Positions 871 through 50,982 of a stretch of 64,000 bases of DNA are shown piece by piece (positions within the stretch are counted from its first letter, which is position 1; every line of letters begins with the position of its first letter). Made by a program: the position numbers and the translations under genes. The stretch is from Candidatus Thorarchaeota archaeon (GTDB taxonomy: Archaea > Asgardarchaeota > Thorarchaeia > Thorarchaeales > Thorarchaeaceae). The stretch spans positions 1 to 64,000 of the forward strand of contig CAVSBO010000015.1 of NCBI GenBank assembly GCA_963726195.1. Direction: 5' to 3'. The notes under the pieces are model-generated. The model was not told the DNA's origin. It worked only from the letters and a program-made list of their open reading frames with translations, and did no database searches.

Positions 871-2134
871 ATGGTATCCTACGATGTAGTAGTAGTGGGT
901 GCAGGACCTGCCGGGTCGGTTGCCGCAAATGATTGTGCTGCACAAGGATTGAAGACGGTTCTGCTTGAGAAGTGCGCTTTGCCGAGAGACAAGCCTTGCG
1001 GCGGCGCTGTCATGTTCCGGGGCATCAGCATACTTCAAGGCAGAATACCCGCTCGCTTGGTTGAGCGCAAAATCTACGGGATGAGATTCATGCTTCCAAG
1101 CGGCAAGAACGCCGAGTTCGCTTCAGACAAGCTGATTGGAATAACTACGATGCGGTCAGAGTTTGATGAGTATCTCGCTCGGAGAGTTGTTGATTCGGGA
1201 GCGGAGCTTATCGAAGAGGCCAGAGTCGTAGGAGCACAGACCGCAAGTGAGTCGGCAGTCGTAAGGCTAGGTGACGGACGGGAGTTTAGTTGTAGAGTCC
1301 TCATAGGAGCAGATGGGGTCAATTCGATTGTAAGTCGGTCTCTCGGTCTAAGACCCGAACACAAGGATTTGACAAGAGTTGGTCTCGGTATGGAAGCCGA
1401 CTTCCAAGTGGGCGAGGATGGCGTCATGAAAGCCACACATGGCAGGCCTTACATCCTCGAGATTGCCCCCGTTGAGGGGAAAGTCAGCTGACGGGTGGAT
1501 CTTTCCAAAAAGAGAACACCTTGGAATCGGCATTGCAGGCGCTGCAGTTCACATGTATCCGCTCCGTCCTGCATTTGACGGTTTCGTCGCGAGTACCGAG
1601 AAGAGACTCGGGCTCAATCTGCCGCCTCCAAGAAGAAGGACCTATTTTCTTGGGGCTGATGGACTACGCTTCAGGAATGTAACAAACCGTGCGATGATCG
1701 TAGGAGATGCAGCCGGCTTCGTGGACCCGATGATGGGCGAAGGTATTGCGTATGCAATGAAGTCAGGAGTGTTCGCGGCCAGAGTTGCAGCCCGTGCAGC
1801 CGAAGAAGACAGATACGACGAAGCCTTTCTCTCCGAATATGATACTCTATGTCACAAAGCATTCGAGTCCAGTTTCGCAATGGCTGCGTGGGCTGGCATG
1901 AGAGGCACCTCGTTTGCTGAATTCGTTCTCTCTCGCGCCAGCGGCTATAGGATGGCTTCGGAAGTGATGGCAATGCTCGCGCGAGGCGAGATTGGATACG
2001 CTGACATACCCGTCACAGTCCTGCGAAGACTGCCCCGTGAGTTGCCTGACATACTTCGACATTATCTTGAAACGAGGAGAGGAACGACCCAACGTAGGTC
2101 TCCAGACCAGGGTGCAAGTGTCCGGAGAGAATGA
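871..2134 (+). CDS. Geranylgeranyl reductase family flavoprotein (frameshift near 1490)
   Basis: YDVVVVGAGPAG, DKPCGG, GADG, GWIFPK, GDAAGFVDPMMGEGI; split over two frames by an extra G in AGC-TGAC-GGG (expected TAC). Confidence 0.9.
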
Positions 2135-3138
2135 AGATGCTGCAACTGCGCTCGTTCCTGGTTCTCCTACTTGTGGCTCAGCCACTGTTTCCGATTGTCC
2201 ACCCTTCGTACATACCTGTGTTCGATGGGTCCCAAGCCTTCGCATATTTGACTTCACAATGTAACTTCGGTCCAAGACCCCCTGGATCGAACAATCTCAG
2301 CCTCTGTAGAGAGTATATTGTCAGCTGTATGACGACTAGTGGATGGAATGTCACTTGCCAAAACTTCACGTATCTCGGTGTTGCATGTGTCAACATAATC
2401 TGCCGGTGGAATTCATCTGGCAACGCATCACTGATTTTCGGCGCACATTATGACACTCGGCCTCGAGCCGATCAAGAATCAAATCCGGCGAATAGAACGC
2501 GACCAGTAGTTGGTGCTAATGATGGTGCCAGTGGCGTTGCAGTACTCATGGAGTCTGCATGCACTTTGCCGCAGATCGTGCGCGGGTCAGCGGAGTTCGT
2601 ATTCTTTGATGCTGAAGATTCTGGAGATATCAACGGCTGGCAATGGATAGTAGGTTCCACTTATTATGTCGGACAAATTGACAGTGGCAGGAAAGCGGCC
2701 ATCAGGGGGATGATTTTGCTCGACATGGTCGGCGATTCCGATTTGCGATTGCTACGTGAGACTGGTTCCACAAGTTCGCTGCAGGATTACGTGTGGTCAA
2801 TTGCCGACCACGCTGGCTACAACAAGACATTTCTCAATCAGTACGGGGCTTCAATACTAGACGATCACAGACCATTTCTAGAGGCCGGCATTCCCTCACT
2901 GGACATAATCCAGCACAATCCGTTTCCATGGTATTGGCATACTCTCAAAGACACACCTGACAAGTGCAGTGCAACAAGCCTTGAGATTGTCGGCAGAGTT
3001 CTCGAGGCATTTGTTGTTCAGTATTCGAACCAGACGACAACATTCTATCAGGGCCCCGCATACCTTGTGTATGTTCCCGTGCTCGTCGTCTTCGCCATCA
3101 TATGCTTGGTTGCATACGCAAAACTCAGACGCAGGTAG
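2131..3138 (+). CDS. M28 family peptidase / glutaminyl cyclase-like, signal peptide and C-terminal TM anchor
   Basis: GAHYDTR, GANDGASG, FFDAED, LLDMVG, DDHRPF, WHT motifs. Confidence 0.88.
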   Translation: MKMLQLRSFLVLLLVAQPLFPIVHPSYIPVFDGSQAFAYLTSQCNFGPRPPGSNNLSLCREYIVSCMTTSGWNVTCQNFTYLGVACVNIICRWNSSGNASLIFGAHYDTRPRADQESNPANRTRPVVGANDGASGVAVLMESACTLPQIVRGSAEFVFFDAEDSGDINGWQWIVGSTYYVGQIDSGRKAAIRGMILLDMVGDSDLRLLRETGSTSSLQDYVWSIADHAGYNKTFLNQYGASILDDHRPFLEAGIPSLDIIQHNPFPWYWHTLKDTPDKCSATSLEIVGRVLEAFVVQYSNQTTTFYQGPAYLVYVPVLVVFAIICLVAYAKLRRR

Positions 3139-3201
3139 TTATTTCTGCAATCGTAGTGTTCTAGAGTGAGAGAATTCCGTAAGTCAAGCACGCTTTGGTG
3201 A

Positions 3202-4105
3202 TTGCTTGTGAAACAGGTCGTCCTTTACAGACCCACAGGTGCGCAGCCTCCTGCTGTGACAAGTGTTTCTGTGGACCCTAGCGGCGTCCGCTTAGTGTGT
3301 GGCACATTGGATGGGCGCATTTTTCTCCTCGACGCCAAGACGGGCAAGATACAAAGAGTTCTCAAGGGCCACGAGTCCATGATTTCGGTGGTGCTGTTCA
3401 TTGATGGAGGGAAGCGAATACTTTCTGCCAGCTGGGACAAAACAACGAGGGCATGGACTCGAGCTGGAGTCCAAGGCGCACACGTGCTCAAACAGAGCGA
3501 TCAAGTGAAGGCTTTGACTGTGTGGGAGCCATCCCAAAGGGGCGCCGTTGGCGCACGAGACGGCGAAGTGAGAATCTTTTCGACCACGAGTTTGAGGAAT
3601 TTGAAGAGCCTGCGTGCTCATGTCGCTGATGTTTCGGGTTTGTCATTTGTAAGAGAGGGCAGTCAGACTCGTTACTTCTTCTTACGATGGCGAATGCAAA
3701 CTGTGGGACGTGCGGAGCGCCACGATGCTGTCCGTGCTTGGAAAATACGATGAGCGCGTTAGGTCAATGGCAACTACGTCGGATGGCTCGCACATCTTCT
3801 TAGGAATGCATGGCGGGAACGTACAATCCATCAGCCTTGAGAATCCAAAGGAAACTCATCGATTTGTCGGGCACTCCGATGTTGTCACCTCGCTCTCAAT
3901 AGACCCGAGCGGTAAGCATCTACTATCAGGCAGTATGGATCGTACTGTCAGGGTATGGTCTACCGAAACAAACTCGGAAGAACTGAATCTCAGAGCCGAG
4001 GGCGGCGTGTCGTCAGTAGCATGGGCGGCCAGTGGGGAGGCGTTTTCATCTGACTTCTCTGGAGCTGTGATTTCGTGGGGCCGGCTGGGCGAGCTGTCTA
4101 CCTAA
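3202..4105 (+). CDS. WD40-repeat beta-propeller protein (frameshift near 3664)
   Basis: GH...SASWDKT.R.W and GHSD...SGSMDRTVRVW repeats; two overlapping ORFs join after removal of one base. Confidence 0.85.
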
Positions 4106-40888: not shown

Positions 40889-41678
40889 CTAGATACTTAG
40901 CAATGCGAACGGCCACCATGTCGGCATAAAGTAGATGAACAGAAAGACCATGACAATCACCGCAAATGGCACTGTCCAGTTGTCTACGTTCTTGGGTGAG
41001 AGCGCTTCGATTATTGTGGCCACCAAGCTGATTACGAGAATTGGCAGAAACAGGTGAACGAGATTATACGTTGCGATTTCTAGGGAGAAGATGACAATCA
41101 GGACATAGCTGAACAGAAAGGAGCCAAAGAACATGCCAGCAGACCCGACTAGTGTCTTCTCTGCGCCGCCGACACCGAACTTCCTGTTGCCGCCATACTT
41201 ACGGCCGATGACATCAGCAAGTCCGTCACCTCCAGCTGAGGCAGCCAAAGATGACGAGCCCTAGGGGAGTCACAGGATAATAGAACCAAAAGAACGTCAC
41301 TATGACTATCATTATCGCGTAGTAGAGAGTTCCTCTAAGTAGCTCTCTTGGATCTCCAGAGCGCGACATCGATGCAACAAAGGACTCATTCTTCACCTTT
41401 CCAGCTCCTATTGCAGCGAATAGAAGCACAAACAAGATGGGCACAATCATTGCGAAGTAGCGACTGTAGGTATCGCCAGGGTATAGATACCAAGTCAACG
41501 CGAATACGGGTGCCGCAAAGATGTGTACGACCTTACGTGTCACGTTAGCCGATAGCTTGCCACTCTTACGAATGGCTCCGTTTATTTGCACGACCATCAT
41601 GACTGCTATTATAGACAACACCATTGCAATTAGGTTCCAGAGCAGTACTGAGCTAGGACCCAAGGGATTCAGAAACAA
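40889..41678 (-). CDS. Phytol/farnesol kinase-like CTP-dependent polyprenol kinase (frameshift near 41238)
   Basis: TRKVVHI, MSRSGD.RELLRG.LYY, GDGLAD.IGR.YG, KT..GS, E.LSP...DN..VP. Confidence 0.85.
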
Positions 41679-41883
41679 CTACTTTTTTCCTCCTCTCGCA
41701 TAATGTGCTACTTGGCTTGGCCGAGCCACCCTATAAATAGTGTTGAAATCCGGGCGCGGAATGTGTGTCGCAACTCTCCGAACGGTCTTCCGGTCCGTCT
41801 GTTCAGTGAGCAGGCTAGCTGTCCGCTATTGTTTCAATACTCTTTTAGCCCCCAGACTGTGAGTGATTTTTGGTGTCAGAACG

Positions 41884-42417
41884 ATGGGCTTGTACAAGTT
41901 CGATGGCAAGATGCCCAAGGTTCATCCCGGTGCGTATGTCTCTTCTCGTGCATCTGTAATTGGAGACGTCGAAATCGGGGACGGAACAAGCGTCTGGGAA
42001 TTCGCAGTGATTCGTGCTGACATGAACAAGATTCGCATTGGGAAGAACACGTCTATCCAAGACAATTGCACAGTGCACTGCACATTCATGAATCCGACCA
42101 CGATAGGTGATTTGGTCACTGCAGGTCACAACTCAGTGATTCATGCGTGTGAGATAGGTAATCAGGTCGTTGTGGGTATCGGTGCGATAGTTCTCAACGG
42201 TGCCAAGATTGGAGATGGAAGTGTCATAGGTGCAGGAGCAGTTGTCACGGAGAACACTCAAATCCCTCCAAACTCTCTAGTGCTGGGAATACCTGGAAAG
42301 GTCATCAAGGAGGTATCCCCAGAGATGCACGAGTCCTTCAAGACAAATGCAGAAATGTACGTCGAGCTTGGAAAGAAACACAAACAGGAATCGGAGCGTT
42401 CCAAGCAGACTAAATAG
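41884..42417 (+). CDS. Gamma carbonic anhydrase family protein
   Basis: Hexapeptide repeats, IRAD, QDNCTVH, GH.SVIH. Confidence 0.92.
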   Translation: MGLYKFDGKMPKVHPGAYVSSRASVIGDVEIGDGTSVWEFAVIRADMNKIRIGKNTSIQDNCTVHCTFMNPTTIGDLVTAGHNSVIHACEIGNQVVVGIGAIVLNGAKIGDGSVIGAGAVVTENTQIPPNSLVLGIPGKVIKEVSPEMHESFKTNAEMYVELGKKHKQESERSKQTK

Positions 42418-42493
42418 GGCTTGCTTCGACCAAGAACAGTCATCGGCTTAGTTTGCCTCCATCTCCTCTGTTTTGGGCAGTATCGGTCTGTAC

Positions 42494-42550
42494 AGAGTCA
42501 CATCTTGTGACTCTCAGCAGTGACCCCGAAACGTGGCTTCGCATTATATA
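42494..42550 (+). promoter_or_regulatory. Inverted repeat and TATA box upstream of the small-peptide operon
   Basis: AGAGTCACA-TCT-TGTGACTCT (42494-42514); TTATATA at 42544-42550. Confidence 0.55.
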
Positions 42551-42582
42551 CTAAACCTGAGTCGTGTTGCTCGTGAAATAAC

Positions 42583-42693
42583 ATGGCACACGAAAGCAAT
42601 TCCCGGAACATAGCTGTAACGAAGAACAGAAAGATTGCAAATGCACAGTCCACTGCTGCACTGGCGTACGCCTTCGCAACTGTTGTGAGGTGA
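42583..42693 (+). CDS. Putative 36-aa peptide MAHESNSRNIAVTKNRKIANAQSTAALAYAFATVVR
   Basis: ATG about 33 nt downstream of the TATA box; resembles the next small ORF. Confidence 0.5.
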   Translation: MAHESNSRNIAVTKNRKIANAQSTAALAYAFATVVR

Positions 42694-42698
42694 ACAAC

Positions 42699-42788
42699 AT
42701 GGTTGAGACCAAGAACGCTCGTAGGACGATTGCTCTTAAGCCAAGGTCCTCGACGGAGGCAATTGTCTTCGTCTACTTCTCCAGATAA
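42699..42788 (+). CDS. Putative 29-aa peptide MVETKNARRTIALKPRSSTEAIVFVYFSR
   Basis: Strong SD GAGGTGA 5 nt before ATG, overlapping the upstream stop codon. Confidence 0.6.
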   Translation: MVETKNARRTIALKPRSSTEAIVFVYFSR

Positions 42789-44602
42789 GAAAAAACCAGC
42801 CTCGTGCAGTTCAACGACCACACGAGGCTACGCGAGTGAAGAGCTGAGATGATCCCTTTCTTCTTCATCTCGTTCATTCGGAGTTCTCGTCTTAGTACCT
42901 TGCCCACTTGCGTGAGAGGTAGTGATTGCACAATCTCGACTTCCTTGGGTCTCTTGTAGCCTGCGAGTTTCTCTCTGGCCCACTCAAGTATTTCCTCAGG
43001 TGTTGCCTTCTCTCCGGGCTTCAGGACTACATAGGCCTTGACGTATTCGTTGCCCATGTCTTCCTTGCTCTTGGGGATACCAACGACGGCTGCCATTGCG
43101 ATTTTTGGATTCTCGTAGAGTGTGTCCTCAATCTCGCGTGGATAGGCCTTGAGCCCGCCCACGTTGATCATCTCTTTCTTCCTGTCACTGATTATTGTGA
43201 AGCCTTCCTCATCCATGTGTCCTATATCACCAGTTAGGAAGAAGCGCTTTCCGTCGATGGTCCTAAAGACTTCCTCAGTCTCCTTAGGTTTGTTCCAATA
43301 GCCCATCATCACCTGTGGACCGCAAATCGCTATCTCACCGGTTTGACCGATGGGCAGTTCCTTCTTTCCGGTCTCCATGTCGACAATCTTGCAGATTGTA
43401 TCCGAAATAGGCAGGCCGATAGAACCGAACTTACGGTCCTTCTTGTTCGTGGGATTGATGTGAGTGACCGGTGATGTTTCGGTGAGACCGTATCCCTCGA
43501 ACATGATTGCTCCGGTGACAGCCTCGAATCGCTTTGCAAGTTCGGGAGGAAGCGGCGCTGCGCCTGAAGAACATACTTTGATCGATTTGAGGTTGAACTT
43601 CTTGACATCGGGATGGTTAATGACACCCGCATAAAGCGCCGGCACACAGCAGAAAATCGTGCCCTTGTAGTCCTGCAGGTCCTTGAGCAAAGCCGTCATC
43701 GGAGGCTTCCCTGCTCTCGGGTCGGGGATACAAACCAGCTTCGCGACAAGATATGTGCACATGAGCATGGTCAAGGTGAGACCGTAGCTGTGGTACCATG
43801 GAAGGGCCCCGACAAACACCTCTTTTCCCGCTTCCATCTTCGGAGGTGTATCCTTGATGTCATCCGGCGAAAGGGTCACCCATTCGTAGATTTGAAGGAC
43901 ATTCGAAACGAGGTTGCTGTGCTTCAAAGCAGCGCCCTTTGGTGTACCTGTGGTACCGCCCGTGTACAGAATCAGCGCAATCTCGTCCGGGTTGAAGGAA
44001 ATCTTGGGTGGCTTTGGTTCGTACTTCTTTATTATGTCGTCGTAGAAGAACGTGATTCCGGGCTCGTACCTCGGGCTTTTCGGTATCTTGCCGAGTGCAG
44101 CTCCCAGCTTCGCTTTTGACCCCGGCAGGAAACTCTTTACACTGCATACAACGACAGTATCAACGCCGGTTCCTTTGATGGCCTCGTAGCAGGTCGGTGT
44201 GAAGGTCTCGTGATCAAGCACGAAGACAACCTTGGACCCCGAGTCTTTTAGCTGGAAATTCAGTTCTCCTGCCTTGTACGCAGGATTGCATGTCACAGTC
44301 GTGGCTCCCGACTTCAGTGCTCCAAAGAAGACGGCTGGAAAATGCGGCACATTAGGCAGGAATATGGCAACTCTTGTGTCCTTCTTGACACCCCTAGTGA
44401 CTAGGAAGTTGGCAATTCTGTCAGCATGGTCGCGTATCTCTGCATAAGACTTCGAGGCGCCTTCAAACAGAGTAAACGGGTTCTTACCATGCTCGTCTGC
44501 TGCTCTGTCAAGCATGGCAAACAAGGGTTCCTTAGGATAGTCTAGATTCTTCCGAACATCCTTTGGCCACTTGTGTTTGTACCAGATGTATTCCTTATCC
44601 AA
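42773..44602 (-). CDS. Long-chain acyl-CoA ligase (FadD-like)
   Basis: YTGGTTGTPKG, EGYGLTE, TGDIG, DRKK, GKVLRR; the true stop is possibly earlier than 42773. Confidence 0.95.
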   Translation of the reverse strand: MDKEYIWYKHKWPKDVRKNLDYPKEPLFAMLDRAADEHGKNPFTLFEGASKSYAEIRDHADRIANFLVTRGVKKDTRVAIFLPNVPHFPAVFFGALKSGATTVTCNPAYKAGELNFQLKDSGSKVVFVLDHETFTPTCYEAIKGTGVDTVVVCSVKSFLPGSKAKLGAALGKIPKSPRYEPGITFFYDDIIKKYEPKPPKISFNPDEIALILYTGGTTGTPKGAALKHSNLVSNVLQIYEWVTLSPDDIKDTPPKMEAGKEVFVGALPWYHSYGLTLTMLMCTYLVAKLVCIPDPRAGKPPMTALLKDLQDYKGTIFCCVPALYAGVINHPDVKKFNLKSIKVCSSGAAPLPPELAKRFEAVTGAIMFEGYGLTETSPVTHINPTNKKDRKFGSIGLPISDTICKIVDMETGKKELPIGQTGEIAICGPQVMMGYWNKPKETEEVFRTIDGKRFFLTGDIGHMDEEGFTIISDRKKEMINVGGLKAYPREIEDTLYENPKIAMAAVVGIPKSKEDMGNEYVKAYVVLKPGEKATPEEILEWAREKLAGYKRPKEVEIVQSLPLTQVGKVLRRELRMNEMKKKGIISALHSRSLVWSLNCTRLVFSYLEK

Positions 44603-50625: not shown

Positions 50626-50982
50626 TCAGCCGGTTCCCCCTACCTTTGCAGCATCTCTCTCGAGTTCTGGGATTTTGGTGCCTTCCTGTACTCCATGGCT
50701 GTTGAACACCTCTTCGGCTTCGTCTCTGTCTGCTAGGAATATCGCCATGTCGGGACAAATGAGTTCGCAAAACTGGCAATTTGTACAGCTATCGATGTCA
50801 CATGCCGTGACCGGGTGGTACCCCTTCCGGTTGTACTTATCAGTCAGGCAGAGGACGGTCTTGGGACAGAAACTGATGCACAACTGGCACTGATCGCCTT
50901 TACACCTCTCCTCCAACATAACGAGAACCTTCTCTCGCATCCTGACCGGCTTTGGTGTAATTGGTTTTCTCACGGAAGTCAT
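50626..50982 (-). CDS. korD: 2-oxoacid:ferredoxin oxidoreductase delta (ferredoxin) subunit
   Basis: C-x4-CxxCxxxCP and CxxCxxCxxxCP. Confidence 0.88.
   Translation of the reverse strand: MTSVRKPITPKPVRMREKVLVMLEERCKGDQCQLCISFCPKTVLCLTDKYNRKGYHPVTACDIDSCTNCQFCELICPDMAIFLADRDEAEEVFNSHGVQEGTKIPELERDAAKVGGTG

Follow-up and report, generated by a model that had tools for sequence, protein, structure and literature searches.

A family-restricted cassette of two predicted basic micro-proteins behind a palindromic operator in Thorarchaeota

No known group is more closely related to eukaryotes than the Asgard archaea, and we know of no cultured member of the Thorarchaeota. The locus described here lies in a 64,000-nt stretch of Candidatus Thorarchaeota archaeon DNA (the window; its genome, G000, is a metagenome bin) and raises the question of whether an apparently empty spacer between two long genes holds genuine genes below the usual ORF-length cut-off, and what the products of such genes would do. 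A preliminary description, made from the sequence, had proposed a hidden two-gene operon of paralogous micro-peptides (here A and B), controlled by a promoter and a palindrome of its own. The present analysis supports this proposal. The palindrome, the TATA box, the two short open reading frames (ORFs) and a Shine-Dalgarno (SD) sequence overlapping the first stop codon are all in place, and judged by the codon patterns described below, A and B are almost certainly real genes. We assign a probability of about 0.6 to the reading that A and B would be unmodified, trans-acting basic micro-proteins, encoded by one copy of a cassette that is restricted to a single family. The parts of the cassette in the window are as follows.

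42494–42502 and 42506–42514: palindromic operator AGAGTCACA-tct-TGTGACTCT, with 9/9 complementary arms
42520–42525 and 42533–42538 (+): direct half-sites GTGACC and GTGGCT, 7 nt between them
42544–42550 (+): TATA box TTATATA, putative promoter element
42571–42582 (+): initiator/short-leader region TCGTGAAATAAC, immediately 5´ of the ATG of gene A
42583–42693 (+): micro-protein gene A, 36 aa (MAHESNSRNIAVTKNRKIANAQSTAALAYAFATVVR), ATG start, net charge +4
42687–42693 (+): Shine-Dalgarno sequence GAGGTGA for gene B, overlapping the last Arg codon and the stop of A
42699–42788 (+): micro-protein gene B, 29 aa (MVETKNARRTIALKPRSSTEAIVFVYFSR), ATG start, net charge +4

The GTGGCT half-site ends 5 nt before the TATA box, and the ATG of gene B is five bases after the stop codon of gene A. 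The ORF listing also gives an alternative 32-aa form of B, which starts at a GTG at 42690, inside the SD sequence. The locus possesses all the features that define the cassette, namely the promoter array, the 63-nt ATG spacing, the stop codon embedded in the SD sequence and the STxA[IL]xxAY motif in both peptides.

Coding evidence and peptide anatomy

Related cassettes encode A and B and, in some cases, a third peptide, C. The peptides were selected by applying motif filters to ORF chains, which yielded 92 B and 38 C besides A. Of 129 unique promoter copies, 109 retain an A ORF of 30–40 aa that passes a loose motif filter, with its start, length and stop preserved despite a DNA identity of about 70% and in-frame indels. 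Conserved residues carry a wobble signature, in which codon positions 1 and 2 are nearly fixed and the third is free; the entropies at positions 1/2/3 are 0.21/0/1.74 for a Thr of B, 0.24/0/1.65 for an Ala of B and 0/0/1.32 for a Glu of C. The ratio of nonsynonymous to synonymous substitution rates (dN/dS), calculated by the Nei-Gojobori method on disjoint nearest pairs, is 0.39 for A (49 pairs), 0.27 for B (38 pairs) and 0.50 for C (10 pairs). Shifted control frames gave 0.96–1.20 for A and B, and 0.73–1.32 over all three peptides. For the window copy of A, the corresponding ratio of proportions (pN/pS) is 0.43 against the orthologue in a related genome (G002) and 0.25 against a paralogue on contig C17 of G000. 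By these measures the A and B frames are under purifying selection; the intact ORFs in relatives and the ratios below 1 bear out what the preliminary description had expected of real genes.

The two peptides were said to share a layout, and this likeness proved to be true homology. In a profile-profile comparison (hhalign; 77 A and 83 B peptides), A and B align over 29 columns with a probability of 98.2% and an E value of 5e-14, which identifies them at the sequence level as paralogues. Peptide C is unrelated to A in the profile comparison. The consensus of A is MAL-x-TN-S-R...K-N...S-T-x-A-L-x-Y-A-Y-x-T-V-V-R and that of B is MALAK...S-T-x-A-I-A-x-A-Y-F-R-R, and C has a variable Ser/Asp-rich front followed by an almost invariant L-T-x-x-E-V-L-A-L-E-A-T end. 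The N-terminal MA[LH]xxNxRN and the C-terminal STxA[IL]xxAY motifs are both conserved and the middle alone varies; A, B and C are all conserved right up to the stop codon. The median net charge is +5 for A, +6 for B and −2 for the acidic C. A and B are hydrophilic (median grand average of hydropathy −0.42 and −0.60), with a hydrophobic patch just 10 residues long, and they are poor in Cys (3/108 A, 5/92 B), Trp (6/108 A, 6/92 B) and Gly (1.4% in A, 0.7% in B). AlphaFold2 modeling with the family alignment predicts one helix for A at lower confidence, with a mean predicted local distance difference test score (pLDDT) of 74.6. For the 32-aa form of B, a helix is predicted at residues 22–31, over the conserved motif (block pLDDT 88–91), and the model shows no regular structure for the 21 residues before it.

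The end of A is also the ribosome-binding site of the following gene. In 100 of 118 cassettes the last codon of A is AGG, with TGA, TAA or TAG as the stop; an SD-like core is located at the end of A in 107 of 118, and the next ORF starts 4–7 nt past the A stop in 78 of 106, an arrangement which, as far as spacing and overlap can tell, is that of translational coupling. The terminal Arg that the preliminary description had counted among the shared peptide features is indeed present, but it is largely the SD core of the next ORF, contained in the last codon of A and its stop.

Distribution, operator and the bactofilin gene

A DNA search with 421 bases around the site against 40 relatives found the unit from the palindrome to the end of the first ORF (about 42496–42715) twice more in G000, on contigs C17 (81%) and C18 (87%), and, across genera of the family, at several sites in each genome. 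A search for further paralogues in the same genome had been suggested, and G000 carries four cassettes in total: the window copy (A-B), C17 (A-B), C18 (A-B-C) and C8 (A-like plus C-like). An A profile built from 77 peptides matches 73 of 76 genomes of the family to which the window belongs and 0 of 224 genomes sampled from 29 other families of the phylum. Positive genomes have 1 to 12 profile matches, which are matches and not curated copy numbers, and no stop codons were seen in those listed. The window peptides score 59.5 bits (A; E 1.7e-15) and 36.4 bits (B; E 2.9e-8) against the family profiles. When 185,579 species genomes were scanned with a pattern consisting of the GTGACC, GTGGCT and TATA boxes, at least 119 loci matched. 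The 80 titles listed comprise 57 Thorarchaeota, 6 Promethearchaeota, 1 Hermodarchaeota and 16 uncultured archaeon, with no non-archaeon among them, and the pattern had no match in viral contigs. The titles bear out the preliminary description, which had pointed to Thorarchaeia.

The preliminary description did not recognise the family, and neither do the libraries. Profile searches of Pfam, NCBIfam, PADLOC and PHROGs returned no family for A, B or C, a PDB sequence search with the three profiles gave a best E value of 0.42 or worse, and A and C reached top scores of 0.76 and 0.80 in the ESM Atlas, below the threshold for a lead. A permissive Rfam search of 41500–43800 gave only three matches, all with E values of at least 2.8 and none inside the interval. 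The portions of the literature on Thorarchaeota and Asgard small proteins, modified peptides and bactofilin that were available contain no description of the family. Among 1.84 billion predicted proteins, gene callers have predicted 37 representatives elsewhere (E ≤1e-3), nearly all 32–37 aa long and either unnamed or labeled 'hypothetical protein'; A and B of the window itself are absent from the roughly 15 billion predicted proteins looked up. Longer members of the 37 had the appearance of fused forms but were rejected as upstream-extended or read-through calls, and one 797-aa profile match is an unrelated repeat protein. A predicted 103-aa protein (P0030), from a 524-nt contig, joins the 68 N-terminal residues of an ATC-hydrolase-like neighbour to an A peptide at 'MAL', and this fusion is probably an assembly or gene-calling artefact.

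The half-site array consists of an inverted pair and two direct GTGAC-type copies, and it extends to the TATA box. The family consensus of the operator is TAGTCACA-N3/4-TGTGAC. Of 123 unique cassette promoters, 108 contain the strict form GT[CA]ACA-N3-4-TGTGAC, and in 105 of these 108 its position is fixed, with the right arm ending 8 nt before the GTGACC box. The ATG of A lies 63 nt after the start of that box in 105 of the 123 copies. Because the GTGACC, GTGGCT and TATA boxes belonged to the search pattern, their conservation among the loci found with it is by construction; the initiator/leader region, with the consensus TTGTGAAatAtc, is conserved although it lies outside the pattern. The TATA consensus among cassette promoters is taTATATAC, and each of 28 copies that align free of gaps has the palindrome, GTGACC, GTGGCT, the TATA box, a TTGTGAAAT stretch and an equidistant ATG. 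In the DNA search the block at 42520–42554 is the best conserved, reaching 94–97% in some other genera, and the cassette promoter is among the most conserved non-coding sequences around it. The TATA region presumably functions as the promoter, and the usual archaeal distance from TATA to start suggests a 5´ untranslated region of ~8–10 nt. Among 20 sequencing runs listed, none was an RNA run containing the stretch, which is uninformative as to transcription. Within the window, GTCACA-N3-TGTGAC with at most one mismatch occurs twice, exactly at 42497 and with one mismatch at 50797, against 0.19 expected. The second, palindrome-like site (GTCACATGCCGTGAC, 50797–50811, +) has no visible TATA or box context and probably falls within coding sequence. 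A fourth G000 cassette (C8:53985–54400, +), which encodes an A-like (..TTTALYYAYLYRR) and a C-like (..LKQVLMWEPT) peptide, is preceded by another type of promoter, with an ACACA-N5-TGTGT palindrome, so that the promoter pattern does not capture the whole family.

G000 is the only genome that was scanned completely for the half-site array. The GTGACC-N7-GTGGCT type occurs in it at four sites, three of which are in cassettes and the fourth on contig C5. At the latter site the palindrome abuts the GTGGCT box, a TTTATAA box is present, and the whole forms the promoter of a 415-aa protein with matches to Bactofilin (3.6e-10) and FapA-like (1.8e-8) domains. This gene begins 14 nt past the stop codon of a gene for a 109-aa winged-helix protein (HTH_45).

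G000 contig C5, about 229336–231003 (−; positions 1838–3504 of locus L168): HTH_45 gene, palindrome/GTGGCT/TATA site and bactofilin gene

The bactofilin-domain gene is single in these genomes, and an orthologue is found in 70 of 77 family genomes. Of 30 fetched loci, 28 have the palindrome upstream of this orthologue and two are truncated by contig ends; a stricter expression that combines palindrome, box and TATA is matched in 24 of the 30, and the C-terminus of the winged-helix protein is recognisable directly upstream in at least 20. Because the palindrome precedes both, the cassettes and the bactofilin gene have a common control site, and it is highly probable from this arrangement that they constitute a shared regulon, with the HTH_45 protein as a candidate regulator of the operator. 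One genome of the same family (G018; 95% complete) has no match to the A profile, the bactofilin protein or the winged-helix protein, a single case that fits the three travelling together.

Weighing the modes of action

In the mechanism that we favour, a sequence-specific transcription factor would bind the half-site array and switch the cassettes and the bactofilin gene together; the candidate for this factor is the winged-helix protein whose gene immediately precedes that for bactofilin. A would be translated by leaderless-type initiation on an mRNA with almost no leader. B would be started by the ribosome that terminates on A, because the last codon and the stop of A form the SD sequence of B, and such coupled initiation would produce A and B in about equal amounts. 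Each peptide would comprise a basic, probably unstructured front half and the conserved C-terminal segment S-T-x-A-[IL]-x-x-[AV]-Y-[FxY], which would let the peptides, in unmodified form, dock onto a larger partner and so act on it in trans. This partner might be the acidic C of sister cassettes, the bactofilin polymer under the same control, or one of the major facilitator superfamily (MFS) transporters coupled to some cassettes; any single one of these, if named, is at best unlikely. In a more specific and rather improbable version, A and B (and C) would be partners of bactofilin, with the C-terminal segment docking on the beta-solenoid polymer for capping, bundling or tethering; the charged tails would then set spacing or bind membrane or nucleic acid.

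What follows the cassettes bears on whether the peptides act in trans or in cis. Downstream sequence of at least 500 nt is available for 68 cassettes: 28 end at B with nothing after it, 25 end with C, 12 have a long same-strand ORF within 150 nt, and 3 have C as well as such an ORF. An MFS transporter (MFS_1, MFS_3) is the sole recurrent same-strand downstream neighbour. Of 19 MFS-linked loci examined, about 8 have this gene beginning −4 to +6 nt from the stop of the last family peptide. At eight loci (L082, L091, L094, L102, L118, L125, L079 and L108) the MFS ORF opens between 10 nt before and 6 nt after the stop of the preceding ORF, which is peptide B in the first six; by this spacing, the pump appears to be translationally coupled to the micro-protein genes there. 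Arrest leaders and conserved-peptide upstream ORFs, such as TnaC, SecM, the fungal arginine attenuator peptide and the leader peptides of efflux and resistance genes, act in cis. If A and B were of this type, a C-terminal motif would stall the ribosome at the stop codon and gate the next cistron (B, C or MFS). The conservation up to the stop, the embedding of each stop in the next SD sequence, and the MFS starts at −4 to +6 nt from the B stop at several loci, with some copies directly before a transporter gene, are all as expected of such leaders. Most copies, however, have no gene to gate: in 53 of the 68 cassettes no long ORF on the same strand follows within 150 nt, and the cassette of the window abuts and faces a convergent gene, yet its peptides are under purifying selection. 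The N-terminal MA[LH]xxNxRN motif is conserved too and is not needed for arrest, and we regard a purely cis-acting leader as improbable. The same two observations on downstream genes speak for action in trans over action in cis. That the ORFs are incidental to regulatory DNA or a small RNA is extremely unlikely. Promoter-proximal DNA is more strongly conserved than the ORFs, and two elements of variant cassettes (E and D, described below) lack the wobble signature; against this, the wobble signature and the dN/dS of 0.27–0.50 are confined to the proposed frames, the ORF boundaries are maintained in most copies, and Rfam has no match in the interval.

The preliminary description had suggested precursors of a pheromone type or of ribosomally synthesised and post-translationally modified peptides (RiPPs), matured by enzymes encoded elsewhere. 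RiPP precursor cassettes include Cys-free classes with aromatic cross-links (triceptides). Like such precursors, A and B are short, tandem and paralogous and have a conserved motif of Ser-Thr and aromatic residues (Y-A-Y, Y-F) towards the C-terminus, the coupled MFS transporters of some cassettes could export a product, and 31 radical-SAM and 3 SPASM matches are present somewhere in G000. The reading nevertheless gained no support and has little probability left. Unlike the situation at RiPP loci, no adjacent or recurrent maturase, RiPP recognition element or protease was found beside the cassettes, and the 122 non-redundant ORFs clustered from about 1.1 kb on each cassette side include no radical SAM, SPASM, YcaO, lanthionine synthetase or peptidase. 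In G000, which is 88.9% complete, YcaO has 0 matches, all three SPASM matches are more than 60 kb from any cassette, and the radical-SAM match closest to any cassette lies 5.7 kb from that on C17, with distances of more than 40 kb for the other cassettes. The scarcity of Cys counts against lanthi-, sacti- and thiopeptide chemistry but not against Cys-free classes. The peptides are hydrophilic, their conserved ends and variable middle do not readily fit a leader/core pattern, and no protease-type cleavage motif was seen in them. Leaderless bacteriocins are likewise tandem paralogous cationic peptides of ~30–44 aa, encoded in one operon with no leader or modification; they are amphipathic or hydrophobic, membrane-active and typically rich in Trp, Gly and Lys. 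Operons of two to four peptides are described for enterocin DD14/L50 and aureocin A70 in the accessible parts of the reports (PMC6131525, PMC10376788, PMC7332713). A and B, as tandem paralogous cationic peptides of the 30–45 aa class without a leader, are similar in these respects, and if they were secreted antimicrobials (archaeocin-like), the MFS protein would be an exporter or immunity protein. The predicted helices, the variable middle, the several copies per genome and the MFS gene after some cassettes are compatible with this. In contrast to leaderless bacteriocins, A and B are hydrophilic and poor in Gly and Trp, with only a 10-residue hydrophobic patch, and they have no Pfam sequence match. 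No ABC exporter or immunity gene recurs in the clustered flanks and none is present in the window, most cassettes are without any transporter, and an operator in common with a cytoskeletal gene is not expected of a bacteriocin, all of which leaves an antimicrobial role very improbable.

Several points weigh against action in trans of a regulated, selected peptide pair. The motif filters by which A, B and C were picked slightly favour conserved columns, although 109 of 129 copies passed for A. B of the window, compared with its G002 orthologue, has a pN/pS of 0.67 on just 12 changes. A long same-strand ORF, in some cases MFS, lies close behind 15 of the 68 cassettes, so that a cis role may apply at those loci. 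The winged-helix protein was considered as a family-specific marker and rejected, with homologues in 18/19, 25/28 and 9/11 genomes of three families (f12, f5 and f27); because these spread beyond the cassette-bearing family, the protein alone fails to explain the cassette distribution. Finally, all genomes are metagenome bins, and G000 has 3.93% contamination.

Among archaeal micro-proteins, the 23-aa sP26 of Methanosarcina mazei is reported to interact with glutamine synthetase, according to the available part of the sources (10.1101/2020.05.06.080432, PMC11456600). As far as these sources go, A and B are similar to sP26 in being unannotated small ORFs of fewer than 40 codons with short-leader mRNAs and an action in trans, which is presumed here, and they are unlike it in their tandem paralogues, translational coupling, multi-copy cassettes, dedicated operator and restriction to one Thorarchaeal family. 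No sequence relation between the two was found in a comparison that covered family libraries only. Translated small ORFs are thus known in archaea as a kind; what is new is the family itself, the tandem multi-copy form of its cassette and the operator.

The 73 of 76 genomes with a match point to an overlooked coding layer of multi-copy, ~30-residue micro-proteins throughout one family. If the peptides are bactofilin partners, the palindrome would define an Asgard-specific regulon for cell shape or envelope, with a polymer tuned by diversifying micro-proteins. Should the peptides modulate a cytoskeletal polymer or a transporter, they would rank among the rare instances of regulation by micro-proteins in Asgard archaea; otherwise, the cassette would be a clean example of real genes below ORF-length cut-offs. 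The putative regulon is testable: its DNA site is defined, a winged-helix protein is the candidate regulator, and the three peptide types are accessible to chemical synthesis.

Neighbours, history and variants of the cassette

The cassette of the window occupies the spacer between two longer genes.

41863–42417: hexapeptide-repeat transferase gene, upstream of the cassette (Hexapep 3.7e-20)
42773–44602 (−): acyl-CoA synthetase gene, convergent to the cassette (AMP-binding 4.6e-92)
42797–42830 (−): terminator of the convergent acyl-CoA synthetase gene, hairpin and T-run, outside the operon

The acyl-CoA synthetase ORF overlaps the 3´ end of gene B by 16 nt. It passes through its own terminator-like hairpin and T-run (42773–42830, −) before ending in gene B, and Pfam coverage of its product extends to residue 568 of 609. 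A 107-aa antisense ORF (42498–42821, −) was rejected as a shadow ORF because antisense frames are not kept open in relatives (7–15 of 108 A copies). ARAGORN found no tRNA anywhere in the window, and a sigma-70 promoter scan, the model of which is irrelevant to an archaeon, returned no promoter.

In G000 and in G002 the spacer between the transferase and synthetase genes contains a cassette; in two further genomes of the same genus it contains none and measures about 220 nt (G003) or about 490 nt (G001). The cassette-free spacers, set beside that of G002, indicate that the window copy is a recent gain. It is closest to the C17 cassette, and we suggest that it would have arisen by a recent duplication into this spacer.

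The flanks of most loci extend for only 1.2 kb. Apart from the MFS transporter, the neighbours within them are unrelated to one another and of a housekeeping type, such as PolX, desulfoferrodoxin, EF-1alpha, TBP, URO-D, GNAT and 3-hydroxyacyl-CoA dehydrogenase. Variant cassettes (e.g. L073, L058, L069, L101 and L126) have the order A, a 41-codon stretch, A´, B´ and a ~55-codon stretch. The 41-codon stretch contains ..GHRTGQLVSETAYxVTNL and the ~55-codon stretch contains ..NFGLKYKQNYDFK.. in translation. These two extra stretches (elements E and D) have entropies of 0.62/0.62/0.70 and 0.56/0.58/0.67 at the three codon positions, which is not a wobble signature, and they may be conserved as DNA or RNA, e.g. 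as a second operator, rather than as peptides.

At two loci with peptide C, a convergent tRNA gene of ~110 nt is located ~50–95 nt past the end of C (L010, which is the C18 locus of G000, 910–1020, −; and L039, 866–973, −). Rfam finds this gene with 41.2 and 42.8 bits and ARAGORN misses it, and it is therefore probably intron-bearing. Next to come after the tRNA gene, in several genomes, are genes for an alpha/beta hydrolase and an aminoacyl-tRNA synthetase.

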